A stretch of 64,000 nt of DNA from an uncultured Nitrososphaeraceae archaeon (GCA_963765895.1 CAVXZB010000032.1:1-64000); one strand, 5' to 3'; counted from the stretch's first letter, positions 11,686-30,636 are shown. Numbers and translations are program-made. Notes: a model not told the origin generated them from the letters alone.

Positions 11686-13741
11686 GTGAAGAAAATGAGC
11701 ACTAATATTAACTTTCCAGAAGATAAAGATAAATCTTTTCCTCTGGAACTTGAATCTTTACCACTATCAGATAAGTTAAAACAGAAAGGTCTAGTCCAGA
11801 GCATAACAATCCATAGAAAAGCAAACACCATCAAAGTAATACTGAATCATGGCTCAAATGCTCCTATTATATCGCCTATATATCCTACTTGGAATAGAAC
11901 GATAAGCAGTTTTGAAACACAAGCTAAAAGGAAGAATCTGTCAGAGGGGGATATAGTTGACATCCAAGATGTATTTGATGCTAACCACGAAAGAATTGCA
12001 TATCATCTGATTGATAATTCCGGCCAAAAAATTCATCTAACTGATAAGGCAAAAGAGGAGATTCTACTTGCCATCGACAAGTTAAGATCAGATCATAAGG
12101 ATATTACAATTGACGAATGGACAAGTACGATGCTAAAAAAATATCAAGATCTGAAAACAGTGATTGAAAGAAATATGCCAAATCTCTGGCCAGGTCTTGA
12201 ATTTGAATTGTCCATACTTAGAATTCTTAATCTAAAAGATTGTACTTTACCATTTGCAGGAATTATTCTGGGCCCGCCGAGTTCGCTCAAGACACAAGTC
12301 ATAGAGCTTCTACGAAATTGGCCACACACATTTTACACAGATAACTTTAGTGCCAAATCCTGTGTATCTCATACTACAGCGGTGTCCAGAGATCAATTGG
12401 CAGAAATTGATTTACTACCTAAAATAAAGAATAGATGCTTCCTGACTCCAGAATTAGCACCTACTTTCGCAGCTAGGGATGATGATTTAGTACAAATTCT
12501 TGGTATCATGACTCGCATATTGGACGGCAACGGATATGAAAGTGACAGCGGCGCGCAAGGACATAGAGGATACAACGGCGAGATTATGTTCACCTGGGTA
12601 GGTGCAGCAGTTGACATTCCACACAAAGTCCACAAGTATCTTGGAACTGTGGGTCCTAAATTTGACTTTATGAGGCCACCAATAATCCATAAGAAGTCAG
12701 AATCAGATTATATGGAGCAAATAAAAAATGGCGACTTTAAAAGAAAAATAGCTGAGATAAAAGAAGCCCTGCTTGATTACCTAAAGTGGTTTGAAATATG
12801 TCCAGATATGACAAGTGATGAAAAATATGGCTTAGTAAAAATGTCCAGGAATTTTGAACGAGATGATGAAATCTCATTAACGTACGTTATTAGACTCGCA
12901 TTCCTACTTACTCAACTGCGAGGTGTAGCACCAACATGGAATACTTACGGCACACAAGGGTCTGACTATGCATACACACTACCGACTATAGAAGAACCTG
13001 ATAGAGCGATACAGCGGACTAACAAATCTAGCCAGAGGACATGCCTTATCGCAAGGCCGCAACTACATTGCACTAGACGATATCCCAATGATTATTAACG
13101 TCGTACTCTCCACTGCATCAAAGGAACGTGTAACCATATTTGATCTATTACTTGCACATAATGGTAGGCTTACTGCTTCAGAAATTTCCATGTCGCTAAA
13201 TATGGCGTCTCCCACTGCGCGGAGAATTATGCTAGAGCTTTGGGTTCTCAGATTAGTAGACAAAGATAAACCTGAAGACAATACCTCAGCAGAGCAGATA
13301 TCTCTAAGACCTGAATTTGAGTGGTTTATAACTGAAGAATTTAGGAAGTTAAGGTATAGTGGCGAGGTAAACAACCAATCTGTTTCACCGAAGATAGGTG
13401 AAGGGGTGAAAGAAAAAATACTCCTTAATAGTGAGGATTTTTTACCAGCTGAAAGTTCACCATTACCAGACAAAGAGGCTACATTTTGGAATATATACGA
13501 TAAATTAGAAGATGAACAGAAAGGATTGGAGGATCACATGGAAGTAGATAAGACCACTGTCGGCGGCTGGGAACTAAAACAGAGGCTTGTTTCTAGCGGA
13601 AAATTCCACACCTCAGATGCGGCAATGATGTTAGAGGAAATGGTCAGTAAGGGGGAATTGAAGGAGGTAACAGTTGATACCTATGTCAGACGATCTAATA
13701 AAAGCGAAGTAGACAATACGGAAAGAAAAATTCCCCCTTAG
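11686..13741 (+). CDS. AAA+ (MCM-like) ATPase/helicase with C-terminal wHTH; one frameshift near 13015
   Basis: Walker A-like GPPSSLKT, LTPE, ILDGNGY..GAQG; the shifted frame gives LTNLARGHALSQGR and joins ORF 13088..13741 (HTH LTASEISMSLNMASPTARRIM). Confidence 0.7.
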
Positions 13742-13744
13742 TAA
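13648..13744 (+). repeat. Hairpin site S1, inside the 3' end of the helicase gene
   Basis: TAAGGGGGAATT (13648-13659) is a perfect inverted repeat of AATTCCCCCTTA (13729-13740); right arm GAAAGAAAAATTCCCCCTTAGTA. Confidence 0.8.
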
Positions 13745-14016
13745 AGTAAGAAATATCTCGAGTAAGTAGATTCAGGAATACAGGTCCTTTCATAGAAATT
13801 TCTGCTCCAGCTTGAAACTGCTCTGTTATTCCACTGGATGATAATGCAGCAATAGTTAATTCAGATCCACCTGCCTTAATAGATCCATTAAAGCCGTACC
13901 AAAAATCACTATATGTTTTTTTGAAAAAGGAGGAAAGACATCAATTTCTGGTTACTAGCAGGGTAATCAGCAAGAATTCAGTTTTAGACTAGGTGAAATT
14001 ACGATATGTCCAACAT

Positions 14017-16517
14017 TTACTTTGGAAAATAAATGGTTTTTGCTCCAATCGTAGCAACTTCTACTGGAAGATGATCTGTAGTAACAATACTTTCTGCAAT
14101 TCTAAAGGCTAATGCTGAAATAGTGAGCGAAGAATTAACTCCTATTGACGTTGGCACTATTCCACCATCAGCTATGTAAAAATCTAGATACGTTTCAGTA
14201 AGTGCTCGGCGTCTCCTTTGTATACTTGACCCAAATTGTTGACTACACCACTGTTTCTATCCTTCCCCATTGAGCATCCACCAAGATTGTGAAGCACTAC
14301 GGTCAAACTTCCGCTAGCATTTGCCGAATCCCAAAGTGGAGTAGAAAAACTTGATGATCCGCCTTCTCCTATATGCTTTGCTATTTCCTCCATATTCTTT
14401 CTTATCTTCGTAAATAGTGGAACCAGTTTATTGGGATCAAAATCTATGTTTAATACATTTAATGCATTCATATCTCTGTTAGGATTATTCTTCCATGAAT
14501 CTTGGAGCCTAACTATTCCATCCGAACTGTCAGTGCCCATCCCAGATAGTAGTAAAGTTTTGGTTAAATCTTCCTCTGAGAATTGGAATGGAAGGCTTGT
14601 ATTTCCTAATGGAATTCCTGAAGGGTTCTGGGTGATCATATTTATTATTGACTGAATGGATCCCAATCCCACAAATCCAAGCAAGCTTCTAAACGAGCTT
14701 CCCTGTGATATTAGCTTGGATATACCTGAGAACATCTTGGGAATGCTGCTATCTTCGATTGTATATACAAAGCCAGGTCCTTCATTAAATTTGATAGCGG
14801 ATGTTACTATAGGACCTCTGGTCGCATAAACATTAGTCTTTGTTGGGTTTACGACTCCAAGCAAGTCTCCGTTTGTAGAATATCCCATACCTAGTCTGCC
14901 GCTTAGACTGAGTTTCTGACCTGCCGTGCGCGTAGTGTTTATAGATTTGAGCAAGATTTCCGTGCTTCCTATTGCCCCTGCTGCAAGAACCAATCTCTTG
15001 CAATCCAACGTTCTTTTTTTACCTCCATCGACTAACCTAAATAATTTTACATCTAACTTGTAAGAATCAGAGCCAATATCCCAACTGAAATTAGTTCGTT
15101 TCCATTCTCTTGCTCCAAAATCTGTATAGTATACTCTGTAGCGATAGGTACCAGTAGTTAATGGTTCTATGTCATAGACTTCACTTAACGCGCGAATCTC
15201 AAGGTGTTTCTTTTTGGTCGGATGATTCAAGTAATCAAATAATTTTCTGCTATTAAGGTGACGCGCCAATGGAATACATCCAATTACACATCGACCTTGT
15301 CTCTCACACACATTTGACTCCGAAGAAAACTTTCTCACAAAAGCAGCCAATTTTTCTTGAGTATTTGAATTGGTCTTGATATTATCTAATACACTTGAGT
15401 AGGAATAGTTACCTGTTGAATCTAAGAAATATGATGCTTTATTAAATAATGTTACCTCGTCTTCTCTATATGGAATATCAGTTATAGATAGATCTACAGC
15501 AAAAATATCTTCAACGGTATTTTGGTCAGGATCTAAATGATCGAATGTAGTCTCATTGGTAACTATTCCTGGATTTTCTTTTCTTATTTTCTCTGCAGCG
15601 TCTTGAAAAGCCTTTGTCTTTGGTAACTTGTAACTACTCAGCCCCGAGGTAGTTGTGATTTTATTTACACCAATGAATCCTTTTGCCATTTCAAAATAGA
15701 GCGATAGATTATTGTGATCGATTCCAAGATGGAGTTCACCATCCCATCTGTCGATCACGTTATCATTTGGCTTTTCGGTAACATTTGCGTAAACTAAAGA
15801 ACCACCACCTACTCCGCTAGCGGAGAGCGTGTGAACATTTTTAGAAATCCTATAATCGTACAGGCCTCTTCTATCAATGACACGCAATGTATTCAAAAAC
15901 TTCGTGAGTCCATCGACGTTATCCGGGTATGCCCAAGTCCTGTAAGGAATATCATTTGCTTCTAAGTATTCCCTCATTCCAAGCCTATATTTTGTGGAAT
16001 CCGTATTCTTCTGTTCATTGAAACCTTTAGTGATTGGCACTTCGTGACTAGTCCACCATTGCCCACGCTCAAGAAGAATTACTTTTCTCTTGTTAGAATC
16101 TGGCACGAGCTTATCCTCTTCATGAAGTTGATTAACTAATGACAACGATACAATTGTGCCCCCAAATCCTGAACCTATTACTACTGCCTCACATTTATCT
16201 AGTTCACCAGGGTGGTCTAATGGCGTAAATGGTATGGTAATGATCCCTGTCTCGTGAAGTTGATGACCATTCCGGTCAAAGATGTTAAGATATAAATCTG
16301 GCTCACTATTTGGTGATTCCCAAAATTCTCCAGGTCTCTTGAAGTCATCTTTCGTAAAAGCTATACTAAACGTTCCATCATCAAGTGTTATCGAACTACC
16401 TAGTGGATCATCTCCTAAGAGATCAGTAACAGGATCTTTATCAAAGATCTTTATTGTATAGTAAGAAAGCCCACTGCTAGCAGCATCAGTTAGTTTTCCC
16501 TTCAATTGAAACGACAT
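14017..16517 (-). CDS. GMC/cholesterol-oxidase-like flavoprotein with an N-terminal transthyretin-like domain; frameshift near 14195
   Basis: GSGFGG, LERG, GVGGGSLVYAN, CxxxGxCxxGC, HNLGGCSMG; the shifted frame continues YIADGGIVPTSIGVNSSLTISALAFR to the stop at 14017. Confidence 0.85.
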
Positions 16518-16758
16518 GCAGGTTATCTTCCACTTCCAATATAAAAGAATTTTATATTCAAGTTTATAGTTGCCTTGCAAGCCCTTGGCGCAAACTCTCT
16601 TAACTCGTCTCCATAATCAATGTCAGTAGTTTTACCACTATGTTTTCGTGTAATTTATCCAATTTCGTTCTCATTGACTCGGTAAGATATGATACCTCAA
16701 GATGATTTTTCCCAATCTTCGCAATTATTTGACTATTCCACACATTTGAACATCCGAT

Positions 16759-17311
16759 TCAATAATCCCGCTTAATCATCTTGTTCAATGAAACTCGTGT
16801 CTTATGAGATAGTTCGATTCTGTGTTGATACCAGATTAAACCTACTGCTGCTCCTAGTCTACCGACTATGCTCCAGAATATGACAGGCAGCAGTCGGAAA
16901 ATCGCCTTTCCAAACACCATAAAAGCCAAACGGTTTGTAGTAGAAGGCAATCCAGTCATAAAGGCTGTTAGTTTTGCCTTTTTGATTCCATAGTGATTGG
17001 TGATGTAGGTACAATTTTTCGATTCCCCATACAGGCGTATCCATTACAACTGTAGAGATTAGGAAGGCAGCCAGAAACATTTCTATCTTCGTAGGAAAGA
17101 ATAACAGCATAAACAAGGCAGGTATGAAATGTCCCAATATGTTCCAAGGCTGATATGTTCGATCACCTCCAAAAAGATCACCTAGTCCATCTAAACTATC
17201 GGCATAATCGAACCAAGCGCCATAGGCTATTGCAACAGTTATGACTATTGCTAACACCTTTACAGTCCAAGTGTGATCGTTAAGAAAATACTTTGCAACA
17301 CCGTCGCTCAT
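16759..17311 (-). CDS. Multi-pass membrane protein (frameshift near 16885)
   Basis: Several hydrophobic helices; the last helix lies in ORF 16759..16959. Confidence 0.55.
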
Positions 17312-17519
17312 CTTGCCCTCTTCTCATAGGGTACTTTATCAAAGTTGTGCATGTTTTGTATATTAGAATGAGACTATTTTTGCCTCGCTGAGGACTATAT
17401 TACTTATTCACAATTTCTCCCTTTTGATCTCTATTTGGGTTTCTATCTAATTTCCTGACTATATTTAACAATTCCCTCAAGATATCCAGATATCCAGAAT
17501 CTACATTTTCTAATTAAGT

Positions 17520-18213
17520 AAAAATCAGAAATGTAGGTCATGTTACTGCACAAATTCGAAAGATGGTGACGGTAGTGATGGCTCTGACGGCTCTAGAGAC
17601 AGTGCCCGTGATATTAATGATAATAATGCCAAGGTAGTGGCCGCATCAAATCAACAGGATACTGGTCCTAATATCATAGATAAAGTTCAGGGCATTACTC
17701 CAGGAGCCGTCACAGCCGTCATTGCCGTCACTTCTGTGGTTTCTGAAATAATAACTCGGTACAACAGATATCCCTGAAACCAGAGTCTAACTGGCTTATA
17801 ACAGAAGAGTTTAGGAGACTAAGGGATGATAATAAAAGGAAGTCAGAGCGACTCTTCGAAGATAGATGAAGGGCTAAAAGAAAAAATTTCTCTTAGTAGT
17901 CAGAATTTTTTAGCATCTGACAATCCATGGCCTTCAGCAGACAAGGTGGCCGCGTTTATGAAAATATATGATGAAGTAGAAGATGAGCAGAACAAGTTAA
18001 CAAATTGCATGGAAGTAGATAAAACCACTGTAGGGGGTCAAGAATTAAAGCAGAGACTTGTTTCTAGCGGATTTTTCACCACTTCGGATGCACAGATGAT
18101 GATTGAGGAAATGGTCCATCAGGCGAATTGAAGATGGTATCTTATGACACCTATGTCAGAGGATCTGGTAAAAAGAAAGAGGACAATGCTGAAAGAAAAA
18201 ATCCCCCTTAGTA
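17520..18213 (+). pseudogene. 3' remnant of a second helicase-family gene
   Basis: IYDEVEDEQ..MEVDKTTVGGQELKQRLVSSGFFTTSDA matches 13088..13741 and ends in the same site motif. Confidence 0.8.
17566..17731. repeat. Inverted pair of 3x9-bp iteron-like arrays
   Basis: GTGACGGTAGTGATGGCTCTGACGGCTC (17566-17593) vs the reverse complement of 17704-17731, 24/28 identical. Confidence 0.75.
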
Positions 18214-18214
18214 G
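18190..18214 (+). repeat. Half site S2
   Basis: TGAAAGAAAAAATCCCCCTTAGTAG. Confidence 0.8.
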
Positions 18215-18438
18215 CCATGAATAAAGCAAATTCTGGATGTGTAGGCAGATGAGGCGCGCATCCCTATAGTCCTGAATGCTGCCTTAATGATATCTATACA
18301 GAGAACACTAAATCGATCAAAGTGGATATCATTAGGAATCTGTCAGGCTATGCTAAATAATGAGACCGTTAATTGGATGAGCACATTTAGAAAACTTGGT
18401 TTGAACGCATGATAATCTCGCATAAAAATAATCAAGGA

Positions 18439-18503
18439 CAAGGGGGTAAATTTCTTTCATCTGCTTCTTGAGTGCGCTGAAAGAAAAATTACCCCTTAGT
18501 AGT
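18439..18503 (+). repeat. Hairpin site S3
   Basis: CAAGGGGGTAAATTTCTTTCA - 18 nt - TGAAAGAAAAATTACCCCTTAGTAGT. Confidence 0.9.
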
Positions 18504-18598
18504 GCTAATTAATTCGACCTGACTTTAAGCCGCTACTTATCCAGTTATATCTTTGGGCTTTCCTGTTACACCGTTCTTTGCTCTGAGTGTTTCAATAT

Positions 18599-19393
18599 CT
18601 ATAATCCATTCAATATCTGGACTACTCTTTCATATACGTCTCTATGTTCTAGCAGATCAAAGTGTATATAGGGTACCGGTTGGCCTAATTGGGTGTAATG
18701 ATAACGAGGACTTGACTCGGCACTATAAACTGGTACCAAATAATCATCTTTGCCTGGGATAAAACAATTACCTCCGTCTGGTACCGATACCCATACAGTG
18801 CCAGACAAACACATATCCGGTATCCAATTTCCAGCAATAGCATAATAGTGGGTACTTTGAGGTCGATCTACTACCGTAGTAGCAGCTGACCCCGGAATTA
18901 AATCTCTGTCAGAATTGAAAGGGCACCCTGTGATGTCTATCCACGCCGCAGGCGAACCAGAATTTGGAGTTCCAATCATAATTAGATTTGCTACTTTATT
19001 AGCGCCACCATGTGCAATATACCATCTTGCATCTAGACCACCTTTGCTATGTGCAACAATATTGACCTTCTCACTACCAGTATCATGCAGAATTTTATTT
19101 ACCATAATGCTTAATTCAGTTGCATGTTCTGCAACGGATCCACATTCGTCATTTCTGTATGTTATTGCACTGAATGTTATTGGATATACCCTCGAAAAGT
19201 TATCAGCCCCCAACCAGTCTGTCCATGTATTCCAAACTCCGGAATCCTCGCCGTAACCGTGTATCAATAGAATGGGCAGTCGATTGGAATTAGGCTGTTG
19301 AGCATTTACTGAAAGAAATGAGCCGCCGGCGACTGTAAGGGAGCAAATTGATGCTAGTGCAACTAGACTTATTCTTAACGTCTTTGTTTTCAT
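18599..19393 (-). CDS. Secreted lipase/esterase (alpha/beta hydrolase)
   Basis: Signal peptide from MKTKTLR, LLIHGY oxyanion motif, AHSKGG nucleophile elbow, GTPNSGS, DDYLVP, H. Confidence 0.88.
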   Translation of the reverse strand: MKTKTLRISLVALASICSLTVAGGSFLSVNAQQPNSNRLPILLIHGYGEDSGVWNTWTDWLGADNFSRVYPITFSAITYRNDECGSVAEHATELSIMVNKILHDTGSEKVNIVAHSKGGLDARWYIAHGGANKVANLIMIGTPNSGSPAAWIDITGCPFNSDRDLIPGSAATTVVDRPQSTHYYAIAGNWIPDMCLSGTVWVSVPDGGNCFIPGKDDYLVPVYSAESSPRYHYTQLGQPVPYIHFDLLEHRDVYERVVQILNGL

Positions 19394-19436
19394 GATCACA
19401 AATAATTGCCTAATCCTTGTACTCAATTTAATTGTA

Positions 19437-19513
19437 TACAAAGGGGTAATTTTTCTTTCAGCTAAATTACTTATTAGTAAAAGCATTGAAAGAAATTTAC
19501 CCCCTTAGTAGTA
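19437..19513 (+). repeat. Hairpin site S4
   Basis: TACAAAGGGGTAATTTTTCTTTCA - 26 nt - TGAAAGAAATTTACCCCCTTAGTAGTA. Confidence 0.9.
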
Positions 19514-19693
19514 AGAAATTAAATGTGATTACAATTAGAAGAGGAATTAATTATGACAGGCCACAACCAAAGATTTGATCCTCTGGGTACGATCTGACTC
19601 AAACCTATAACACCGATTTTTATAACAAATCACAGAAAGAAGAACATAACTTTTTCGTTAATTTATTCCAGCATGTAAATGGTTACCGTTCTA

Positions 19694-20653
19694 CTATTGT
19701 CTTATCTTTGAAGGCTTGTCCATCATGTCTGAGAGATTCTTGAAATAAGTACTGGCATTATTGACTTTGCCATCCTCACGATTTATTATCTCCAAGGACG
19801 ATGACAAAGGAATTCCTAGGTAACCCACCATGTAACCAGACTGAGCATCTGCATCCCATGCTCCACACCAAAGCTCCAAAGTCCATGGATCTGTTGATGA
19901 TAATCCAACAAGTTTACCAGGCAAATAGTCATTAGGATCTTCAAATATTGCATTTCCAGTCAAATACATAGAATACAGCATCCGAATAGAAAATCTTCGA
20001 GGACTAATGTTCGACATCGTCTCTATACGTGACTTTATTGCCGCAATTTCGATTTCATTTGTAGTCTTTGTAAGGTCAGCCTGAAGCTTCGCAACACGTT
20101 CCCTCCATACACCTGAAAGGTCTAAGATTCCAGTTGCTTCTTCAATTTCCCCCGGGCTGACACTTTGGAAAATTGCTTGAAGTCGTTTGAATTTATCTTG
20201 ATCTTGATCAGTCAATGGTGGAAATCTCATGTCATCATCAAATTTACGCTGGATATTGAAACTGCGACTATCGAGGTCCTTCTTTACTTGTATATGTACT
20301 GGAAATATTGCTTCTGCGCCGGGTTCAGTCAATATAGTATTTCTACCCTCGAATTTTGGCTCATCTAAAAAGTCTACCAAGGCTCCGATGAGAGGATGAT
20401 CATCTATCCTGTGTTGATCAACGTAAACTGAAACCACCTTTACACCAATCAAGGGACAATATGAACGTTGAATAACGCCAGAAGATGGTTGGAGTCTAAT
20501 AATTCTATCCAAATCTGGTTCTCCTGCCACAGCATGTACATATCCATCTACGCCTCTAGGTTCGTCTGTGGGGTCTGGATCTGTTGCAAGACGACATTGA
20601 AACCATCCTGCGAATTTTAATACTAAGGAAGTTGCTGCGTTTACCGTTGTCAT
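19694..20653 (-). CDS. Hypothetical protein coupled to the ferritin-like gene
   Basis: Intact 319-aa ORF, 5 bp downstream of 20659..21927; N-terminus LKFAGWFQCRLATDPDP. Confidence 0.8.
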   Translation of the reverse strand: MTTVNAATSLVLKFAGWFQCRLATDPDPTDEPRGVDGYVHAVAGEPDLDRIIRLQPSSGVIQRSYCPLIGVKVVSVYVDQHRIDDHPLIGALVDFLDEPKFEGRNTILTEPGAEAIFPVHIQVKKDLDSRSFNIQRKFDDDMRFPPLTDQDQDKFKRLQAIFQSVSPGEIEEATGILDLSGVWRERVAKLQADLTKTTNEIEIAAIKSRIETMSNISPRRFSIRMLYSMYLTGNAIFEDPNDYLPGKLVGLSSTDPWTLELWCGAWDADAQSGYMVGYLGIPLSSSLEIINREDGKVNNASTYFKNLSDMMDKPSKIRQ

Positions 20654-20658
20654 TGTAC

Positions 20659-21927
20659 TTATAACTTCTCCTCCAAGGCCAAAGTTTTTTCTATGTTTTG
20701 TTTTAATAGTAATAGATTTTCAGAAACAAAGTTTAATCTTTGATTAACCGATGATAGTGCCTTAGCTTCATTTGCAACTGCATCAAGCCCCTCCTTAACA
20801 ATAATCCATCTGCTTGACTGTTGAGTCGATATCTGCAGACTTCCATAAAGTTCAAATGTTGGTCCAGCATTTCCGTCGTGACTATTATTAGAAGTTGTCG
20901 CCGGCATTTCCGTTAAAATTTCAGCCATTGGTCGCAATACCGAAGTCATAAACTGCCGCGATGAATGCCTTAATGTATCACGTTGTTGCGCTATCTCTCC
21001 TCCAAAAGAATATAATTGTGATAACAGCAGCAGGACTATCTCATAACATTCATTAAATAACTCGGCAACCCTTTTAGCAGAATCGTTATCTATAAGAGTA
21101 GTTCCTTGTGTAGTTGGCGCGTCTCGATGAAATTTACGAGTACGTGGATTAGGAACGACTGGACGCGAGGGGTCAAAGTCTGGTCGGCGGTGAATTTGCT
21201 CATCTAATTCAGTACGCATTTTCAAAAAGGTATCGTAATGGGATCCCTCTCGGTGTCCAGGAGAGCCTTCTCCAGAACATACGATTGAATCAATTGCTTG
21301 ATTGGCAGTCTGCCTATCTACTACTCGCAATACGCTAATTCTCTCAGACCATTCGTCGCTGTCATCTTCCTGACCAGCTTTTGGTCCTATGAATAGTGTA
21401 TCTTCAGGAATAGTATTAAACCCCTCTCGGACTTTACGATAAAGCTCTCCTACATATTCATATTCTAGCGGATCTGGAGACACATTAAATAATGCCGCTA
21501 ACATCTTGCTATCAATTTTCTTAAGCAGTGGATCTCTTATTTGTGGTGGCTTAGGAGGCTGTTCATCTTTTGGTAATTCAAAACGAATGAAACGATATAA
21601 CGTTTCATCTGAAAATCGACTCAGTGTAAAGCTAAATGGATAATACTTGTCAGCTTCTTGAGGAAAATTAGGGCGTGTGAAGTGCGGCCCTGCACCAATA
21701 GAACAAAGAAGATTGCATACCGTACCAAGATGAACCATTTCTTCGCGTGCGACTGTCAGTATTTGCCCTTCCCATTTTCTAATTAACTCCTGCTGTTCAC
21801 CAGTAATACCTTCCTCAAGGCGTTTTTTCAGAGAAAACGCTGCGAACAGATATTGAATAAGCAAACCATGTTCGAGCTCCGCGGCCTCGTAGAGGGCATA
21901 TGTCAGTTCCTCTCTTGTATCAATCAA
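20659..21927 (-). CDS. Ferritin-like domain protein (VioB/RebD/StaD C-terminal type)
   Basis: AAELEHGLLIQYLFAAFSLK, VAREEMVHL, FIRFELP, VGELY, GEG..SHY..F, NAGPTFE. Confidence 0.85.
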   Translation of the reverse strand: MIDTREELTYALYEAAELEHGLLIQYLFAAFSLKKRLEEGITGEQQELIRKWEGQILTVAREEMVHLGTVCNLLCSIGAGPHFTRPNFPQEADKYYPFSFTLSRFSDETLYRFIRFELPKDEQPPKPPQIRDPLLKKIDSKMLAALFNVSPDPLEYEYVGELYRKVREGFNTIPEDTLFIGPKAGQEDDSDEWSERISVLRVVDRQTANQAIDSIVCSGEGSPGHREGSHYDTFLKMRTELDEQIHRRPDFDPSRPVVPNPRTRKFHRDAPTTQGTTLIDNDSAKRVAELFNECYEIVLLLLSQLYSFGGEIAQQRDTLRHSSRQFMTSVLRPMAEILTEMPATTSNNSHDGNAGPTFELYGSLQISTQQSSRWIIVKEGLDAVANEAKALSSVNQRLNFVSENLLLLKQNIEKTLALEEKL

Positions 21928-22014
21928 TTATTAGTAACCTCTACCAATGTATGATGGTAGCAACTAATAAAGTTAGAATATGAATATGTAGTGTATTTAG
22001 CCAGAGCATCACTC

Positions 22015-22037
22015 AAGAGAATTTCCCCCTTAGCAGT
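22015..22037 (+). repeat. Half site S5
   Basis: AAGAGAATTTCCCCCTTAGCAGT. Confidence 0.7.
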
Positions 22038-22151
22038 GAAAGTTTTAGTTCAGGTATAGGATAGAAGAATAATATGAAGATTAATCAAATTAATATCAGT
22101 CATGAGATAATATTAACACTGATTCATAATACCGCTAATAAAATAATGATA

Positions 22152-22210
22152 TACAAGGGGTAACTTTTCTTTCACCCCCTCACAGAAAGAAATTTACCCC
22201 CTTAGTAGTA
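22152..22210 (+). repeat. Hairpin site S6
   Basis: TACAAGGGGTAACTTTTCTTTCA - CCCCCTCACA - GAAAGAAATTTACCCCCTTAGTAGTA. Confidence 0.9.
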
Positions 22211-22827: not shown

Positions 22828-22969
22828 CTTATGTAATACTCCCCATGAGATCCGGTGAATGTTATCTGTTGTGACTAGTAACTACAATCAGTAAAGATCT
22901 TATTCCATTCTTCTATTATTATAACGAAGATTATTGCCGTTACATGCCAATTAATTAAACACACAACCC

Positions 22970-23590
22970 TTACCTAACACTTGCGGGGGCACTTAATCTG
23001 AAGGACTTAATCATGGAAGATACGGTTGCGTCATCAAAGGGCCATGCACTATTATATGTAATGATGTATGCTTTACCATCTTTTATTGTAAAAAGTTGTA
23101 ATATATTTTTTGGAAGAATAAACTCTGAACTACTTTGTTTCATGATATATTCTAATTTTTGTGCGGGGTTACCTGCCAAGACCGCGTTAGATTTTGTAAT
23201 ATTATGTAATGATCCGTAAGATTTTAGTTGGTCTGTGGCAGCTCTAGCATATTCATTTAAGGTTACATTAGCCCGTCCTAAAGTTTCCACTACTATATTG
23301 ACGACGCTACATGGCGCCTTAAAGCTAACTACAGTATACGAAGGGTTGCTATTCGGACCTGTTACGTTCCAGCTAGCCGGATACAGTATGCTTATTCCAA
23401 GCGCACCATTTTCATATGTCTTAAGATTAGTTGTTTTAGGCGTACACTGAGACTTCATTTCGTCAAAGATCTGATCTATATTATCTCCTCTTGCGGGAGG
23501 GTAAGATGAAAATGAAAAAAGAATCGCAAAAAGCAATCCATAGCAAATGATCTCATTTTTGTGAATTACAATCCCATCAATAATTGACAT
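22970..23590 (-). CDS. PsbP-like exported protein
   Basis: TYENGALGISILYPASW, LAGNPAQKLEY, KDGKAYIITY, MIKSFR. Confidence 0.8.
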   Translation of the reverse strand: MSIIDGIVIHKNEIICYGLLFAILFSFSSYPPARGDNIDQIFDEMKSQCTPKTTNLKTYENGALGISILYPASWNVTGPNSNPSYTVVSFKAPCSVVNIVVETLGRANVTLNEYARAATDQLKSYGSLHNITKSNAVLAGNPAQKLEYIMKQSSSEFILPKNILQLFTIKDGKAYIITYNSAWPFDDATVSSMIKSFRLSAPASVR

Positions 23591-23669
23591 AATATTATAA
23601 TATCCTTTGGTTTAATGTATTAAATAAAGTTTAAAAACAATAAAATAAGCAATGAGTATGACGATAGCT

Positions 23670-25736
23670 TTATTGAATAATTATATCCTTAAATATTTTC
23701 TCATTTCTTATGTTGTCAAAGTCTTTTTCCAGCTTCGCTAATTCTCGATATTTCGGCCCGCCTATTCTAATTGCCTGAATTAAATCCGACATACCTTCCT
23801 TGAAACGCCCTATTTTAACTTTCGAACATGCTCTGTTGTAAAATGGAACAGCATCAATTGGAGATTCAAGGTAATTTTGCACCTCTATAGCATTATCGTA
23901 ACTTTGTATAGCACTGTTGTAATCTCCAAGTTTAGTATAAGCTAAACCTCTGTTATACCATGCATCATAATACTGAGGCCTAATCTTGATAGTCTCATCA
24001 TAAGATTTTATTGCTTCACTGTATCTACCTAATTCATAAAACGCCAGACCTCTGTTATACCATGCAAAAGGATAGTCAGCCCTTATCTTTATGGAGGTAT
24101 CGTAACTTTGTATAGCACTGTTGTAATCTCCAAGTTTAGCATAAGCTAAACCTCTGTTATTCCATGCAACAATATATTTAGGATCTACTCCAATAGATTC
24201 ATCATAGTATTGAACAGCTTCCTTGTAATTGCCTAATTCATCAAGGATTTTACCTTTGTTATATAATGCTTCTAGGAAATTTGGATTTAGATCAAGAGCT
24301 TTGTCGCAGTTTTCTAGAGCTTTGTCATATTTCTTCAGCTTATAATATGTAATTGCAATAATCATACCGAATAGCTTAGCCTTTTTGTCATCAGACAGAT
24401 AAACTGGAATCTCTTTGATCGTATCTTCGACTATATTGAGAGGCACAGAGCTAATGAGTGGGATTGTGTACAAAGTCTCTATAACTGAAGCTGCTAATTC
24501 TTCATTGTTAAGGTTTAATATCAAATCCACTGCTTTCTTAATGTATCCTTTATTTTTAAGAAGCTTTCTTTTGTCGTTTGGATCATATAAATATGAAAGC
24601 AGCTCAATATCCCATTTAGGGTGAATCGTCTTCCATCCTATGACGGGTTGAGAATATAGGGTTGCACCTTCAAGATCAAGAGCATAACTTAAAAGGTCCA
24701 TATCTTCTAACAGTTCTTCAGATATTGGCAAGCCTGCAATATCTAATAATGAACAGACAAGCATAGTTGTTATCTTCATTTCATAAGCCTCTTCAGATTG
24801 CTCTGCATCACTAAGATAATTCTCATATCTTCTTTCGACATCGCTTCTTAATCCCTTTCCAAAAACAGAGAACTTGACCATTAAAGGATGTCCTTTTGCT
24901 GCATCATTGTAGATTTTTTCAGAAATTAATTGATATGCATACTCTTCTGACCAAGCATTCAAAGGAGTTCTTATTTGCCGGATTAAATGCTCTATGTTAC
25001 CATACCGTTTGATGAAGGCTTTAGTTTCTTCCTTGGTATAGGTTGGCAATTTGAATCTGAAAGTTGGTCTTGCTCTAAATTTTCTTATTGATTCTCTGTA
25101 AATTCCTTCTTTTACCTTTCCCAGTCTATCATTAACATACCAATCAAATTCTGGCAGCCCGGCGGTTAAGACGAATCTTACACTGGCATGTGATTCATAA
25201 TTTGACAGCTCATCCATAACGTAAAAAATTGCGGCAGTTCTTTCACTATGAACGTCATCTACGGCAACCAAGACGTTATTATTATTATTCAAAAAGTTTT
25301 CGATGAAATGTATAATCTCTGTGCCATTTGTAAGATCTGAATCACCAAAATTATATAGTATTTTAAATCCTTTTTCAAAGTACTCGCATATAATTTCCAT
25401 TAGAATAGTACTTTTAGAAGTGCCCATTTCACCTACTAACAATACCTGATGATGATTTTCGATTTTCGTCTTTATTTGATCCACAATGCTTCTTCGAAAT
25501 TCATAATGTTCCTTAATCGATGATAACTTGAATGAAAACCCCTCTTTCCAATCATCAAAGTCTTGATCTGTAGCCTTATAATCGTCAAAGTAAGTCGGTT
25601 TGAGTAAGTTCAATCCAAAGCTTCTCGCTTCATTGGCTAGACCAATTACAACATCTCCGCCGATGTGAATGTTTTTTCCAATAAATATTCCCTTACCACT
25701 AACGTCGCCTGTCTGAATACGATCACCAGTAGACAT
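23670..25736 (-). CDS. STAND/NLR-like P-loop NTPase with C-terminal TPR array
   Basis: Walker A GEMGTSKS, Walker B VLVAVDD, GHPL (GxP), about 6 TPRs (AWYNRGLAY..LG.Y..AI..YD). Confidence 0.85.
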   Translation of the reverse strand: MSTGDRIQTGDVSGKGIFIGKNIHIGGDVVIGLANEARSFGLNLLKPTYFDDYKATDQDFDDWKEGFSFKLSSIKEHYEFRRSIVDQIKTKIENHHQVLLVGEMGTSKSTILMEIICEYFEKGFKILYNFGDSDLTNGTEIIHFIENFLNNNNNVLVAVDDVHSERTAAIFYVMDELSNYESHASVRFVLTAGLPEFDWYVNDRLGKVKEGIYRESIRKFRARPTFRFKLPTYTKEETKAFIKRYGNIEHLIRQIRTPLNAWSEEYAYQLISEKIYNDAAKGHPLMVKFSVFGKGLRSDVERRYENYLSDAEQSEEAYEMKITTMLVCSLLDIAGLPISEELLEDMDLLSYALDLEGATLYSQPVIGWKTIHPKWDIELLSYLYDPNDKRKLLKNKGYIKKAVDLILNLNNEELAASVIETLYTIPLISSVPLNIVEDTIKEIPVYLSDDKKAKLFGMIIAITYYKLKKYDKALENCDKALDLNPNFLEALYNKGKILDELGNYKEAVQYYDESIGVDPKYIVAWNNRGLAYAKLGDYNSAIQSYDTSIKIRADYPFAWYNRGLAFYELGRYSEAIKSYDETIKIRPQYYDAWYNRGLAYTKLGDYNSAIQSYDNAIEVQNYLESPIDAVPFYNRACSKVKIGRFKEGMSDLIQAIRIGGPKYRELAKLEKDFDNIRNEKIFKDIIIQ

Positions 25737-25779
25737 ATTACTATCTAAATATAATCAGTACGGATATTGAGAGAATCTG

Positions 25780-26271
25780 TCACCTACCTTGTTTTACAGC
25801 ATCGACAATTGCCTCTACTCCCTTGCCTATAAGTTTGCTAAAAGGAGATAGAGGTGTAAATGTGGTAATAATTTCGGCTGCTGAGGGAAGAGCATTCAAT
25901 ACTTTATCAACAAGGTCAACCGTCTGTGCTTGAATATTTGTCTGTTTTACAAAATTTATCTTCTCTTTGCCTGGGGTAACATCTTCAACTTCTTTTCCAA
26001 GTCTAACAATGGCTTCTTGTATCTGGTTTGTCTTTTCTTCTGGAACTTTATATTTTTGAAATTCTTTATTGAGGTTTTCAGAAAACTTTCTTAAGCTCTC
26101 GGAATATTCACTCGGTACCTTTTCAAGTTCCTTAGTTAGATTATTAATATTTATTGTCCCGATGTCAATATCCTTACCTATAACAATGCCTTCTCCACTT
26201 ACGGTGCCCACTGAAATAACATCTCCAGATGGCGATTGTTCATTAACACTATTTTTTTCATTAATTTCCAA
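25780..26271 (-). CDS. Small helical protein sharing its N-terminal motif with the downstream NTPase-TPR gene
   Basis: GDVISVGTVSGEGIVIGKDIDIG then a helical domain; 43 bp upstream of 23670..25736. Confidence 0.75.
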   Translation of the reverse strand: MEINEKNSVNEQSPSGDVISVGTVSGEGIVIGKDIDIGTININNLTKELEKVPSEYSESLRKFSENLNKEFQKYKVPEEKTNQIQEAIVRLGKEVEDVTPGKEKINFVKQTNIQAQTVDLVDKVLNALPSAAEIITTFTPLSPFSKLIGKGVEAIVDAVKQGR

Positions 26272-26668
26272 ATCTGAGCCCAGAATTCTATTGAGTCGTT
26301 ACAATATATAAGAATTAATTCCTATTCCTAGGCTATGCGTAGAAATATGATGGCACTACTTCCACACACCGCCAAGGTATGTACTTAATACTGACTAAGG
26401 GTATTATAGGCGTAAAAGAGTTTGAATCATGTTGACTCAGAAAGAAACCGTGATAGTACAATTGCTGAAACTTCTGTAGCTCTCGTAAAAAATATTATTT
26501 GAGAGATGGATATCTTACGCCAAGAATGAATGTTGTGAAATTGGGTAATGTCCGATGGTTGAAGTCATGCGCCAATTTGGGTTTTACTATAGGTATGATA
26601 TGCAAGATTTCATCGAATACTCACATCTCGGTCTCTTAGCATTTATTTAACTGGCGGTAAAATATTAT

Positions 26669-26744
26669 TATTACTAAAGGATAAATTTTATTTCAGCAAT
26701 GGTGTTCCATTAATTCGGTCTGAAGAAATTTACCCCTTTGTAGT
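26669..26744 (-). repeat. Hairpin site S7 (inverted, degenerate)
   Basis: Minus strand reads TACAAAGGGGTAAATTTCTTCA - loop - TGAAATAAAATTTATCCTTTAGTAATA. Confidence 0.7.
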
Positions 26745-26754
26745 CAGATATTTA

Positions 26755-27115
26755 ATGAGATAGAACAGAATCTACACTTCATAATATCACATTTCCAAGA
26801 ACCCCTTTTCCCAAGGAATATCATGACCAAAACCCTTGGCTATCAGAAAGAAGTGTTCAACCTACAAAAGTCCTAGGATATTTTAAGGCATCAAACTATG
26901 AGGACTGTAGAATTAATGCTTATCATTCGTTTACCAAATATGATGGAATAAATAGAACTACACCAAGTTTTCTAATGATTGACATTGATCTAAAGGACTT
27001 TGCGTCAAAAGATTAAATCGGTAGAGCTATAAAGGGTCATAAAGAAAATTAATACAATTACAAGCGGAGACCCTACATTACTATGTACTGGTAATGGTTA
27101 TCTTATCTCAAATGA
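26755..27115 (+). pseudogene. AEP primase-polymerase N-terminal remnant
   Basis: Manual translation across breaks: FIISHFQEPLFPRNI..EDCRINAY..FLMIDIDLKD..PTLLCTGNGY (DxD and TGNGxH-like motifs). Confidence 0.75.
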
Positions 27116-27147
27116 TACATAGACAGAACTTTAACAAATCTAAATCA

Positions 27148-29984
27148 TCATGCATTATTATTTTTAATCGGCTTTCCATCTGAAGTATATTTTGTTATTC
27201 TTCTTCCAAACGATTTAGCAGGTTGCTCAGTATAGCTTGTATTGCGCTCCTTGAGGTCTTGTAGGATTGAATCTTCATAATCCAATTCTTTTGGTACCAT
27301 ATATCCAGACATGAGATACTTATTTTTCATTTGAATCTCTGTATTCTTTCGTAACATAATCTCTGTTCTTGATGGGTTTTCGAACTCAATAATGAAACTA
27401 CAATGGAAATTTGTATCGGCAATTTTAGTATTTGATAGATCAGCTCCTGAAAGATTTGCTCCAAAGAGAATGGTATTTGATAGATCAGCTCCTGAAAGAT
27501 TAGCTCCAGAAAGATCAGCATTTGATAGATCAGCTCCTGAAAGGTTAGCTCCAGAAAGAATAGTACGTGATGCATTAACACCCATAAGCATAGAATAGGT
27601 AAATTTCGTATTTAACATATTTGCTCCTGAAAGGTTAGCTCCAGAAAGGTTAGCTCCAGAAAGATCAGCATTTGATAGATCAGCTCCAGAAAGGTTAGCT
27701 CCAGAAAGATTTGCACGGATATCAGCTCCAGAAAGGTTAGCTCCAGAAAGGTTAGCTCCAGAAAGGTTAGCTCCAGAAAGATCAGCATTTGATAGATCAG
27801 CTCCTTGGAGGAATTCAAAAGATAAATCAACAGCCCTTAATCTTTTGGGTAGCAAAGATACAGTGCGACTTGTCTTAACTATAAGATCAGATAATATTTT
27901 TTTATCAATGTTCATTCGGTATTCCTCTAGCTTATTTAACACGTATAAAGATAACCAACGATGAATCCAAAGTTCACGATATCTAGAGAGAGGTAATTCA
28001 CACATGTTCCATAGTCCTATCTTTTTTACTTCAGAGTTTTCTGTTTGAAATATTATTTCCTCATCTTCATAATATCTTTGTGCATTTCGGATAAGATTTC
28101 GTTTAATTTGTGATGGAGATACATTCTGTTGTTGGTTCTGAGGAACTAATGATTTTATCAGAGTGGTGGTATATTCGTTTAGACTATTATTATTAGTATT
28201 AAATAATTCCAATAATCCATCAAGAAATAGCATTGTCTCTGCAGTGGGAATACCCACATTAAGATAATTTTTCTTGTCTTCCAGTATGCTCTCAATATAG
28301 TATTCTGCAAGAAGATATTCTTGAAAGCTTTTGTGAATAAAATCTACGGTCTTATCTGTAGTAGTCTGACCTTGTAAATAAAAGTAAGATGTAAGAATGG
28401 GTTCAAATAATTCTTTCTGTAGCGTCTTATCGAAGCCATAGATCCTAAGTTTATCTATGAGAACGCTTTGTTTTAAGATATCCGGATAGTACATCTGTCT
28501 TAATGCGGCTATCTTGCGTAAGATTTTCTTTTCTTCAGAATAAAACTGCGCGTATAATGATATTCATCAGCTACCTGTTTGTGCTTGCCTCTTATAATCG
28601 AATGAATGAATCCTTCATAGATTAATGCCCTTGTCATCTGCGTATTCACAGAATCCTTTAGCATTATTTCATCTTCTAATTTTGACTGCATCATTATGCA
28701 GAACATCCGACAAAATAAAGGCTTACGAATTTCTTCTTCCGTTAATTTATAATTTTGAAGCTTATAAAAATTAAATTCTAATCCATATTTGTAGAAAAAT
28801 TCATTTACTTGCACTCTACTCAATGGAAGCAGTCTAATATAATGGGATATGTTGAGTTTTTCAGGTATGCCCGCTTCCAATCTTGTTGTGATTATATATT
28901 TCATATTTGGAAACGCCTCATCGCTTTGTAACTCATCAAGAAACTCCTTTAGCTTCTCTTCATCATCGCCGTATTCGTCCAAGCCGTCACATATAAGAAG
29001 TATCTTTCTCTTCTTGCCCGCTCCTCCGGGAGCTATTAACTTTAGGATTTCATCAAGACTATGTTCCTCTTCATCTACAATTTTAAGTTTGCCTTTTAAG
29101 GGAATGAATATAGGAATGTAGCTATTTTCGTTGTTGGGATTTTCAAGAAATGTAGAAGCCATGGTAGAAGTCAAATGGATAGACAAAGAGGTTTTTCCGA
29201 TTCCAAAAGGAGCACCGAGCACGATACGACGTTTGCCTTTAGCAAGGTGGTCTAATACAAGGGATTTTGCTTTTGGCGTCGTTTCACTATCAAAATATGC
29301 TGAGAAATAGATATCTCCCTCCTCCCACGTCTGAACACTTCTATTGACAGCGTTGTTTTCAATATAATACTCGTCCAAATACTTCCCATCTATGCGATTT
29401 GATTTGTAAATAAGTGATCTTGAATATTCAAGATGCTTTAATAGGTTTTTAGTTCGCTCTTTGTGCGCGAACATGTCTTTGAATGGTTTAATCGCTGGAT
29501 CATTATCCGCCTTTTCTTCTAGAGATATATTGAAATTAAATATAAAATTGTGTATCAAATCCTTATGTTGCTCGTAACTTAAAATATTGCATAAAAGGGA
29601 TCTAAACCTTGTGATGACGGGGTGGTCTGGCAAATATGAGTTCCATCCTTCAGTATCAATAAAAGTGTCAAATAGTTCCCTCTTGATTTTTTTACTTTTA
29701 ACATTGGAAAAGACAGCAGGTTTCTTTCAAAAAACATCCGAAATTGCCAACGCAATTGGCAAAATAATAGGAAATAAAAGCTTTGAAGATAATGTCTTGG
29801 CAAGGGCCGGAAGCATTGGCGCTTTAATTAGTATTGGTATTGGAATCTATCAACAAATTAAATACGACCTGCAGTCTAAAGAAGAGCAGGCTTTTGCTTC
29901 ATTAATAAAAATCGCATTTGAAGCAGCGCACGATTCTTTACCTGAAAGAGATGAAATATCAATAAAGGATGAAGGTATATTCAT
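27148..29984 (-). pseudogene. NACHT NTPase with C-terminal pentapeptide repeats; frameshift near 28530 and inverted 5' segment
   Basis: Walker A GAPFGIGKT, Walker B LLICDGLDE, ITTR, FIHKSFQEYLLA, (A[DN]LSG)n; the N-terminus is recoverable by inverting 29702-29971. Confidence 0.85.
27430..27805 (-). repeat. 15-bp periodic coding repeat (pentapeptide repeats)
   Basis: (GGTTAGCTCCAGAAA)n-type units encoding [10 protein letters not shown]. Confidence 0.9.
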
Positions 29985-30571
29985 GGAATTATTAAAGATT
30001 TTTCTGTAACCATCAGCCGCCAGCTTTCTCTCTAACCGATGGTGGTAGCCAGTCTGTTACATTAGGTCCCGGTAGTTTCGATTTACAATCCACTGATCAA
30101 GGTATCTTCTCAGGAGACTGCATGCAAACAAGCCCTACCTGTGCAACTGGTACCATTAGTACGGGACAGCACCTCACCTGTACTATCCGTATCAAATTGT
30201 TCTAATTTTCTTTTATTATTTTGAATAATATATCATATGGCTCATTATGAGTAATTATTGCAACTGTAATGACTTTGACAAGGCTATAGATTACAACGGT
30301 AGGCAATATTATAAGTAACAGGATGATAGATTCAATGCAGTAAAAAAGCTGGTTTCGTATATCAGATCATGGTACTTATGATGGCCTATTGCTAGTTTGG
30401 AACCATTCAGACATTTTCCATAGTGTTCGAAGAAATTAGCAAATCCAATGTCAAAGTGGAGGTGTAAAGGAAGTTTATCAGATTTATGGGGTGTATGATA
30501 TTGTCAGGTGCGATGCATAAATGCAGAACTTTGGCAGATGACGACAAGTACCAACCAAATAATTCTAATGA

Positions 30572-30636
30572 ACAATGGGGTAATTTTCTTTCACCCCTCC
30601 ATATAGGTGGAGAAAGAAATTTTCTCCCTTAGTAGT
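30572..30636 (+). repeat. Hairpin site S8
   Basis: ACAATGGGGTAATTTTCTTTCA - CCCCTCCATATAGGTGGA - GAAAGAAATTTTCTCCCTTAGTAGT. Confidence 0.85.

Follow-up and report, generated by a model that had tools for sequence, protein, structure and literature searches.

The DNA analyzed here, referred to as the window, is a stretch of 64,000 nucleotides (nt) from an uncultured Nitrososphaeraceae archaeon (GCA_963765895.1, CAVXZB010000032.1:1-64000), which corresponds to contig C32 of an 88-contig, 4.9-Mb metagenome bin (88% complete, 2.4% contamination). Between 13408 and 30636, it carries a series of asymmetric inverted repeats, present as full hairpins or as single arms, which lie among cargo genes and among the remains of two putative replication genes, encoding a replication ATPase (hereafter helicase, a name taken over from an earlier reading of the sequence alone) and a primase. 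That sequence-only reading had listed eight sites (S1 to S8) and had interpreted them as a gene-capture system with its own recombination site. We lean towards a different interpretation, in which the hairpins belong to a replication module as its cis-elements, probably serve as its origin or as initiator-binding repeats, and double as recombination junctions; in that case, the window would hold a copy, expanded and decayed, of a plasmid-like integrated element in a soil ammonia-oxidizing archaeon.

Sites and genes in the window

When the arm pattern was searched in the window with at most two mismatches, 10 matches were found, all within 13720-30627, compared with 0.08 expected, and none of 100 shuffled sequences reached 10. 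A direct-repeat search returned 10 plus-strand copies of the right arm, starting at 13408, 13721, 17876, 18191, 18479, 19488, 22013, 22185, 26720, and 30612, together with five left arms. By using a covariance model trained on 23 hairpins of the organism's own genome, we were able to recover five full hairpins (S3, S4, S6, S7, and S8), and the scan of the whole window yielded no full hairpin beyond those five. Folded as single-stranded DNA, four of the five reached z scores of −4.2 to −5.9, S8 having the weakest fold (z −1.5). The arms are 22 to 25 nt long and of two types, GAAAGAAATTTACCCCC for one type and GAAAGAAAAATTACCCC for the other, the loops span 9 to 26 nt, and the consensus over 23 aligned sites is ACTACnAAGGGGGAAAnTTTCTTTCA...TGAAAGAAAATTTCCCCCTTAGTAGT. 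Arm types were tallied over 47 hairpins of the genus: at least one arm was untypable in 20 of them, and 26 of the 27 hairpins with both arms typable pair one arm of each type, which bears out the conserved arm asymmetry pointed out in the sequence-only reading. The arm type tracks the flank class. The stem was assessed by this tally and not by covariation, since the arms are highly conserved and the two types shift the register.

All eight places listed earlier carry the palindrome on reading of the sequence. The accompanying claim that the window holds no other sites was correct for the DNA outside 13408-30636 and failed within these limits, where two unlisted half-sites were found, both in helicase-derived coding sequence. 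The first (13408-13432, plus strand, right-arm orientation) lies inside the helicase open reading frame (ORF), belongs to direct-repeat family D2, and is homologous to a site at L032 7797-7833 in a relative (G001) and to an in-frame hairpin in another genus (G042, described below). The second (17876-17900, plus strand) is the internal arm of a helicase remnant and was identified by direct repeats. The other sites are likewise given on the plus strand. S1 (13721-13744) and S2 (18191-18214) are terminal half-sites, the latter at the end of a decayed helicase 3' copy. S3 (18435-18503) is a type C hairpin with flanks C1 and C2, and S4 (19435-19512) is B-like with a long loop, both being supported by the covariance model and by folding. 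S5 (22013-22036) is a lone right arm, recognized by sequence reading, and S6 (22150-22209) an A-type hairpin according to the covariance model; together with the spacer of about 115 nt between them, they form a composite unit (22013-22209) which is seen upstream of primase genes elsewhere and is 75 to 82% identical to units on contigs C22, C42, C52, C18, and C84. S7 (26670-26744; covariance model and flank classes) combines a B-type loop with hybrid flanks D and P, the left one of type D and the right one being the primase flank. It had been described as inverted; instead, it is a B-type hairpin joined to a primase flank, with only the outermost bases swapped (TACTAA / TTTGTAGT). The right arm and flank of S8 (30568-30636) are near-identical to those of a single hairpin on contig C27. 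GC-rich motifs of the GCGCGC type recur in several loops and in the conserved spacer described below, in a region otherwise AT-rich (for instance, at 18250-18258 in the window, at 61990-62000 on C25, and at L032 8190-8200), and the insertion point of additional DNA in G001 falls directly after such a motif.

The helicase gene (11686-13741, plus strand; identified by homology and Pfam) encodes a predicted AAA+ lid and winged helix and is split by an apparent frameshift into the ORFs 11686-13098 and 13088-13741, the second of which ends in ERKIPP followed by a stop codon within the S1 arm. The two ORFs are 81% and 72% identical to an intact 699-amino-acid (aa) protein of G001 (contig C53), which matches Pfam AAA_lid_2 and HTH_IclR, the latter being matched also by the C-terminal piece in the window. 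A second, decayed helicase 3' end (17743-18214, plus strand; tblastn) is 72% identical in nucleotides to 13272-13743 and shares the direct-repeat families D2, D4, D5, D7, and D9. It is followed by a conserved non-coding spacer of about 230 nt (18215-18434, plus strand), which runs from the helicase end to hairpin C, could be aligned in G001, G002, G006, C27, and L041, and is an insertion hot spot in relatives. The primase gene is represented by a 5' remnant (26730-27106, plus strand; tblastn and nucleotide identity to other copies), and the 385-nt stretch on the right side of S7 is found again, at 75 to 83% identity, beside hairpins on seven other contigs (8 copies). A contig from sequencing run X1 over 12607-13130 differs from the window by one gap near the helicase frameshift, and contigs from runs X1 and X2 are without one base at 16886, inside the gene of a 150-aa membrane protein; since the contigs of two runs differ from the window by such single-base indels, some of the frameshifts (helicase, 16886) may be assembly or strain indels.

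The cargo lies mostly on the minus strand, as the sequence-only reading had stated and the ORF map confirmed, and all genes named in this paragraph are minus-strand genes. Beyond S1, module 1 consists of a gene for a GMC oxidoreductase-like protein (14184-16580, domain match) and of the ORF for the 150-aa membrane protein (16859-17311). In the organism's own genome, the former has only a partial paralogue (a 108-aa stretch at 55% on C23), and no paralogue of the latter was found. After the decayed helicase 3' end with S2 and the spacer with S3, module 2 is a secreted class-2 lipase (18599-19393, Pfam Lipase_2), which probably begins at the codon of MKTKT..., some 45 nt away from S4, and which has copies on C27 (86% identical) and, in the same slot, in G002:C114 (74% identical). 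S4 is followed by module 3, encoding a 319-aa protein and a ferritin-like (PF12902) protein (19694-21927, Pfam), and then by S5, its spacer, and S6. Module 4 (22970-26271, domain matches) encodes a PsbP-like protein, a STAND NTPase with TPR repeats, and a 163-aa protein; apart from one partial match at 40%, no orthologue of the STAND-TPR gene was found in six genomes of the genus. This gene contains 102-nt tandem units encoding TPR repeats at 23883-24182, and an X2 contig skips 204 nt there (23893-24098), which makes it a repeat-number variant. Past S7 and the primase remnant, module 5 (27148-29633, domain matches) encodes a pentapeptide-repeat protein, with 45-nt tandem units at 27415-27842, and a NACHT NTPase, and the two ORFs may be one broken gene. 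S8 is followed by a fragment of a subtilase-like peptidase gene (30887-31522), truncated by an insertion sequence (IS) at 32019-33045; the peptidase region shows 96% nucleotide identity to C27 34834-35794. The gene assignments of the sequence-only reading (GMC oxidoreductase, lipase, ferritin-like, PsbP-like, STAND-TPR, pentapeptide, and NACHT) were recovered, except that its S53 peptidase matches Peptidase_S8, and this weakly (E 0.0029). The helicase and the primase remnant are separated by about 13 kb with four cargo modules, the fifth module lies beyond the remnant, and two of the "modules" hold backbone remnants, i.e., the helicase 3' end and the primase 5' end.

The helicase-primase module in relatives

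According to the covariance model, the organism's own genome contains 23 full hairpins and one weak match on 13 contigs, with five of the full hairpins in the window. The sequence-only reading had suggested a scan of related genomes for such sites, for their clustering near the integrase and helicase, and for differences in cargo. When 100 relatives were scanned, hairpins were found in all six other genomes of the genus, which as kin are not independent samples, and the cargo set differs between platform copies. Weak matches came from three genomes in two further genera of this family, and no hairpin was found when 40 genomes from 19 other families were scanned. As to the neighborhood, the clustering is with primase genes. 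A primase homologue lies within 1 kb of 11 of the 23 own-genome hairpins and within 5 kb of 14 of them, compared with 1.4% and 5.3% of random points, respectively, whereas integrase genes, present at 49 loci, lie within 1 kb of none of the 23 hairpins and within 5 kb of three, compared with 2.4% and 8.8% of random points. The hairpins track the primase gene, not the integrases.

The 45-nt flanks of 50 hairpins (47 from the genus and 3 from other genera) were sorted into classes defined by our own clustering threshold, and in each of the 47 genus hairpins one flank or both fall into a replication-platform class. This bears on an alternative offered by the sequence-only reading, namely, that the hairpins are selfish repeats resembling repetitive extragenic palindromes (REP) or miniature inverted-repeat transposable elements (MITE), which flank genes by accident. 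They are indeed short imperfect palindromes with about 23 copies on 13 contigs of an IS-rich genome, but there is no case among the 47 genus hairpins in which neither flank is related to the platform, flank conservation runs 30 to 50 nt past the arms and into coding sequence, and the hairpins are strongly enriched beside primase genes. No target-site duplications were seen, with no search having been aimed at a RAYT-type transposase. We deem such an origin of the repeats highly improbable.

An intact copy of the platform was found in G001:C53, where the element encodes an integrase (397 aa; PF00589, E 6e-14), two winged-helix-like proteins, and the 699-aa helicase, whose gene carries an internal and a terminal half-site. 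These are followed by a gene of the glycine-transporter family, hairpin C, a gene for a 167-aa protein, hairpins B and A about 130 nt apart, and the primase gene, so that the integrase, the AAA+/winged-helix ATPase, and the PriX-containing primase are encoded within 9 kb. In this element, the covariance model detected no hairpin adjoining the integrase gene, and no convincing direct repeat bounding the element ends was found. A tRNA-type att site was considered and rejected, tRNA genes having been found neither in the window nor in six related loci. A copy in G006:C158 is free of cargo: the helicase end is followed by the 230-nt spacer, by a single hybrid hairpin, and by a primase gene with an internal stop, and the module spans about 3.5 kb. 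The platform copies form a series from no cargo in G006:C158 through one module in G002:C192 (an S9-type hydrolase) and two in G001:C53 to five in the window; a further copy, in G002:C114, has a 7-kb block in addition to the lipase.

Intact homologues of the primase are 310 to 360 aa long and have a PriX domain at the C terminus (NCBIfam; Foldseek 5of3_C, E 3.7e-6), which is the only domain matched with confidence in a structure model of low overall quality scores (pLDDT 61, pTM 0.34). The N terminus gave weak Foldseek matches to the fold of the archaeo-eukaryotic primases (AEP), namely, 2iry_B with probability 0.75 and 5of3_A with probability 0.82. Sequence searches of PHROGs and of the PDB with the helicase and the primase returned nothing useful, and a structural look-alike of the helicase among PF27228/TrmB clusters is a lead only. 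The functions of both proteins are therefore putative ones, predicted from domain matches only.

The arm motif extends beyond the genus. With at most three mismatches, it was found at the 3' end of the helicase gene or shortly past it in 16 of 30 loci, 10 of which belong to five other genera, against a background rate of 0.0096 matches per 280 nt. In one of these other genera (G042:C1, L054 1691-1749), a full hairpin lies in-frame inside the helicase ORF and is translated (…RGEISFKQLERKTPPSEE…), encoding GEISFKQLERKTPP in the linker before the C-terminal domain. In G056:C17 (L073/L130), a perfect 21-nt inverted repeat has its copies about 630 nt apart, one in the 3' coding part of the helicase gene and the other directly before the primase gene; an arrangement with the helicase gene directly followed by the primase gene is also present in G036, G056 (two loci), and G001:C37. 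From the helicase 3' ends of five other genera and these two loci in G042 and G056, we infer that the arm motif is older than the arrays. Among the 60 family genomes searched, the helicase is present in 23 and the primase in 39, the latter count taking in the unpublished genome G038. That every primase gene of the family is preceded by the left-arm motif was considered and rejected, given that only 4 of 27 loci carry it upstream of the primase (27 genomes, 4 of them in the genus).

The way in which the arms are set into the ends of the two genes raises the possibility that they are expression signals of the replication operon, i.e., operator, translation-start, or termination signals, and that cargo merely accumulates between conserved genes; as operators, they would be bound by the winged-helix domain of the helicase or by neighboring regulators. 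The helicase stop codon lies within one arm, winged-helix regulators are encoded beside the G001 helicase, and the left arms are bordered on their outer side by AT-rich, TATA-like flanks (TTGTATA...), some 45 nt upstream of where the lipase begins. Hairpin A, together with its flank, extends over the 5' end of the primase gene. The sites had been described as intergenic apart from those at helicase 3' ends, which does not hold for S7, whose right flank is the 5' coding part of the primase remnant, and the primase frame is open across the entire hairpin in 8 of the 14 copies examined. On the other hand, loops of 9 to 26 nt are hard to fit to a dimeric operator of fixed geometry, five to ten copies per element exceed what an operator would need, and hybrid flank combinations, described in the next section, are left unexplained by expression signals alone. 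Such signals are compatible with the origin-like repeats that we favor, for which a regulatory role would be possible; as the sole account of the hairpins, we regard them as distinctly unlikely.

Rearrangement at the sites and away from the arms

That the sites separate discrete cargo modules was upheld, and rearrangement at the sites is seen in comparison with C27 and G006:C436 and in the flank classes. Canonical flank pairs account for 23 of the 47 genus hairpins (primase-side/spacer in 11, helicase-side/distal in 5, and distal/spacer in 7), while the remaining 24 have non-canonical pairs, such as C1/P, D/P, and Sp2/lipase-upstream. The combination of helicase-side and primase flanks corresponds to the "empty" platform, and that of distal and primase flanks was found in S7 and in one G002 site. 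Contig C27 carries a paralogous copy in which a helicase remnant and a spacer split by 3.1 kb are followed by a hairpin, the lipase (86%), one hairpin, and the peptidase (96%). In this last hairpin, the left flank and arm are those of S4, and the right arm and flank are those of S8, including the rare CTCCC variant, while the loop is unlike the loops of both S4 and S8; relative to C27, the stretch from S4 to S8 in the window holds 11 kb more. The ferritin pair has a decayed counterpart, 90% identical, in G006:C436 with no hairpin nearby, and the homology stops at 22012, one base before the S5 arm.

Read-level evidence consisted of Logan contigs, from which an excised circle can be neither demonstrated nor excluded. 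Contigs of run X6, a soil metagenome from another study and mostly 90 to 95% identical to the window, include the C27-like junction and a second one, whose shorter side has 48 nt and at which the flank of S6 facing the spacer runs into the S3 right arm and its flank. The contig joints 18350-19487, 18503-22165, and 19516-22062 were not used, having 22 to 30 nt on the shorter side and lying inside repeated arms, and stretches not covered by X5 or X6 contigs were not counted as evidence. Comparison of the copies shows the sites to behave as recombination junctions at which cargo has been inserted, deleted, fused, and exchanged.

The assumption that cargo always enters at the arms was rejected, because three insertions are arm-free. 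The first is an insertion of about 1 kb in the G001 spacer (L032 8192-9204), which carries the glycine-transporter gene and has no arm at either junction; an 824-nt part of it (L032 8380-9203) is 92% identical to G005:C68, with at least two further copies in G005. The second concerns the 167-aa gene of G001, which has chromosomal copies; the homology with these breaks off at distances of 170 nt and 336 nt from the neighboring hairpins. The third is a 3.1-kb insertion in the helicase-hairpin spacer of C27 (G000:C27 37158-40273, L004), flanked by a 37-nt direct repeat which is itself spacer sequence and is equivalent to 18283-18319 in the window. In addition, the hybrid hairpin L044 has its crossover in the outer flank, outside the arm. 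Given these three insertions and the L044 crossover, the helicase-primase interval is a general cargo hot spot, in which the hairpins are conserved islands. As regards the inserted DNA itself, the 824-nt unit (glycine-transporter family, PF03458) has the same ends in L032 and in two of the three G005 copies (those on C68 and C41, the third being on C38), is also inserted in the G001/G006 element, and behaves as a gene-sized mobile or duplicated unit with no recognizable site. The C27 insertion contains small zinc-ribbon-like ORFs and no integrase gene and looks like a separate small integrated element.

These rearrangements invite an explanation in which the arms are site-specific, maybe structure-specific, recombination sites, so that modules with one hairpin would be excised as circles and inserted at resident hairpins by a tyrosine recombinase acting in trans or by an unrecognized enzyme, in analogy to integron cassettes or dif modules. 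The modules are bounded by sites of constant polarity, as seen in the 10 direct plus-strand arms, the flanks reassort at the hairpins, the arm asymmetry and its bulge are conserved (26 of 27), and the ferritin cargo lies between direct arm copies while its G006 copy is without an arm. Flank class X10 is joined to a type-2 arm in one locus and to a type-1 arm in another, which implies a crossover between the inner arm and the flank, and the C27 loop is inverted relative to the Sp2-type flank when compared with C52, as recombination between inverted arms predicts. The X6 contig junction which goes back from 22160 to 18477 may represent the junction of a circle or else a tandem copy. According to passages of PMC13141974, dif modules set a precedent for modules delimited by sites on a Rep backbone that is conserved. 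Still, the proximity counts given above link no recombinase to the hairpins, and no hairpin lies beside the integrase gene even in the intact G001 element. The L044 crossover outside the arm, the three arm-free insertions, the two "modules" with backbone remnants, and the conservation of the motif within the helicase gene or at its ends in genera that showed no arrays also argue against dedicated recombination sites, and we regard this explanation as unlikely.

The one integrase gene that the sequence-only reading had associated with the array lies 4.6 kb beyond S8 (35280-36531), and this association did not survive scrutiny: the gene is broken into two ORFs and belongs to a family of 49 loci in the genome, many of them fragments, which shows no enrichment near hairpins. 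It is 36 to 41% identical to the intact G001 integrase. On TIGR02249, where the cut-off is 265 bits, its N-terminal part reaches 30.7, and on NF011946, where it is 435, the score is 28.8; the G001 integrase attains 17.6 bits as an integron integrase, and on the archaeal XerA model the integrases reach 68 to 78 bits against a cut-off of 220. By the distance test and the family scores, the link between the sites and this integrase was rejected.

Candidate roles of the repeats and known systems

The resemblance to integrons lies in cargo arrays split by imperfect palindromes, conserved unpaired bases, and uniform site polarity. The cargo lies mostly on the minus strand, but the modules hold one to three genes, and two of them contain backbone remnants. 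The sites described here differ in being linked to the primase rather than to an integrase. No IntI was found, and the lack of RYYYAAC/GTTRRRY cores noted in the sequence-only reading was corroborated, with no GTTRRRY core in the 23-site consensus. Neither attI nor Pc was identified at the locus, and an Rfam search over 9000-40000 with E values up to 1 returned two irrelevant weak matches. We do not take the array to be an integron. Canonical integrons are known from Archaea, mostly as attC clusters without integrase, from a paper whose text names neither Thaumarchaeota nor any taxon beginning with Nitrososphaer (bioRxiv 10.1101/2022.02.06.479319).

A closer parallel to the favored origin-like role is found in the Sulfolobus plasmid pRN1. 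Passages of PMC4234260 describe its origin as a stem-loop just downstream of the primase-helicase gene and as the only non-coding element needed for replication, with no dependence on position. Likewise, the arms described here lie at the helicase stop codon or 3' end and the hairpins lie between the helicase and primase genes, so that a stem-loop adjoining a replication-protein gene is present here too, as read from sequence alone. Unlike pRN1, which has one stem-loop of about 100 nt and a fused primase-helicase, the present system has separate genes and several hairpins of 60 to 80 nt along with half-sites, some of them in coding sequence and with cargo in between. The maintained pairing of the two arm types (26 of 27) is an indirect hint that the integrity of the structure matters.

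With regard to the elements themselves, integrated elements of Thaumarchaeota that encode a tyrosine integrase together with an AEP primase and helicases are reported in Nitrososphaera-type genomes, where arrays form by re-use of integration sites (Krupovic et al. 2019, passages of PMC6563490). G001:C53 fits this pattern, with its integrase, regulators, helicase, and primase, and has the makeup of a plasmid-like integrated element; the same module is decayed in the window. The att sites in those passages are direct repeats at the element ends, whereas the hairpin sites here are internal. The word "hairpin" does not occur in that article, the passages on which we draw describe no such palindromic site, and in the literature that we searched we found no prior description of these hairpins.

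Site-bounded accessory modules on a conserved Rep backbone, subject to deletions, inversions, and shuffling, are known from Acinetobacter Rep_3 plasmids, as set out in parts of PMC13141974, and the graded series of zero to five modules and the hybrid sites found here are comparable to these dif modules. The present sites differ in their variable loops, in the absence of a linked recombinase, and in being part of replication genes. An Xer/dif site was rejected on the basis of the 22- to 25-nt arms, the 9- to 26-nt loops, which misfit the 11-6-11 layout of an Xer site, and the XerA scores below the cut-off. The pdif sites are 28-bp XerC/XerD sites of this 11-6-11 layout on which the host Xer proteins act. 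In lambdoid phages, the origin lies within the initiator gene O, whose linker-coding part contains repeated inverted repeats that bind the initiator. The in-frame hairpin in the helicase linker of G042 is alike in its location; the proteins are unrelated.

In the interpretation that we favor, the asymmetric inverted repeat would act in cis in the replication module of a family of plasmid-like integrated elements in Nitrososphaeraceae, a module consisting of an AAA+/winged-helix helicase gene followed by a putative AEP/PriX primase gene. In its minimal form, one arm forms the helicase stop codon and is followed by the conserved 230-nt spacer and by a hairpin at the start of the primase gene. 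The arms would most likely act as origin or initiator-binding repeats, a role suggested by their position at the end of a replication gene, their multiplicity, and their inverted arrangement. As the same 25- to 60-nt sequences recur within and between element copies, recombination at them has exchanged cargo in the helicase-primase interval and just beyond the primase remnant, up to S8, which the comparison of copies shows; in our view, the joining is more likely homology-driven than enzyme-catalyzed. Of the alternatives named in the sequence-only reading, "origin hairpins or termini of nested elements" comes closer to the evidence than the gene-capture system itself; the cargo modules and the rearrangement at the sites speak in favor of the latter, while the sites are better described as cis-elements of a replication module, unlinked to the integrase and with some insertions entering away from the arms.

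Several points weigh against this interpretation. We infer the origin role from position and conservation only. The hairpin model is strong within the genus only and weak in two other genera, and the 4 of 27 primase loci with an upstream motif make it a feature of a sub-lineage rather than of such modules at large. As to the putative primase, structure modeling indicates an AEP fold weakly, and the assignment rests in part on the motifs DxD and sxH, which we take to be the catalytic ones. Two-type arm pairing gives a fixed bulge when folded, which would also suit a structure-specific recombinase, and direct arm copies (the S4 right arm and S5) flank the ferritin pair, as integration of a circle would leave them. 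Homologous recombination does not easily explain the entry of arm-free DNA such as the G006:C436 ferritin pair. A gene-capture platform set in an archaeal plasmid replication module, with catalysis by a recombinase acting in trans or by the replication proteins, is a doubtful reading in our estimation; if correct, such a platform would supply soil ammonia oxidizers with secreted hydrolases and with STAND/NACHT defense-like genes. If the sites were acted on by an enzyme, they would constitute a new cassette system, an archaeal counterpart of integrons and dif modules with an unrelated site; if not, the array would stand as a well-documented case of module shuffling around an origin-like repeat.

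The array also shows where accessory genes for lipases, peptidases, oxidoreductases, and STAND/NACHT NTPases are gained and lost by these elements, the exchange points being short conserved repeats at the boundaries of genes and domains. We know of no genetic system for ammonia-oxidizing archaea. The compact and apparently complete replication module with its candidate cis-acting origin, intact in G001:C53, could serve as a starting point for a shuttle vector.

Mobile DNA also borders the array on both sides. On the upstream side, close to the helicase module, the IS at 9843-10812 encodes a DDE_Tnp_1 transposase (294 aa); of its roughly 80 matches in the genome, about 35 reach an identity of at least 98.5%, and these many near-identical copies make it look recently active. 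This IS may have removed the integrase side of the element. On the opposite side, the IS at 32019-33045 encodes a DDE_Tnp_1_5 transposase in two ORFs and has copies at 98.5 to 99.5% identity on C42 and C47. Between the peptidase fragment and this IS, a repeat of about 215 nt (31754-31975) has more than 60 copies at 68 to 86% identity on many contigs, has a further copy next to the G001 element (L032 13193-13542), and may represent a MITE or the end of an IS.

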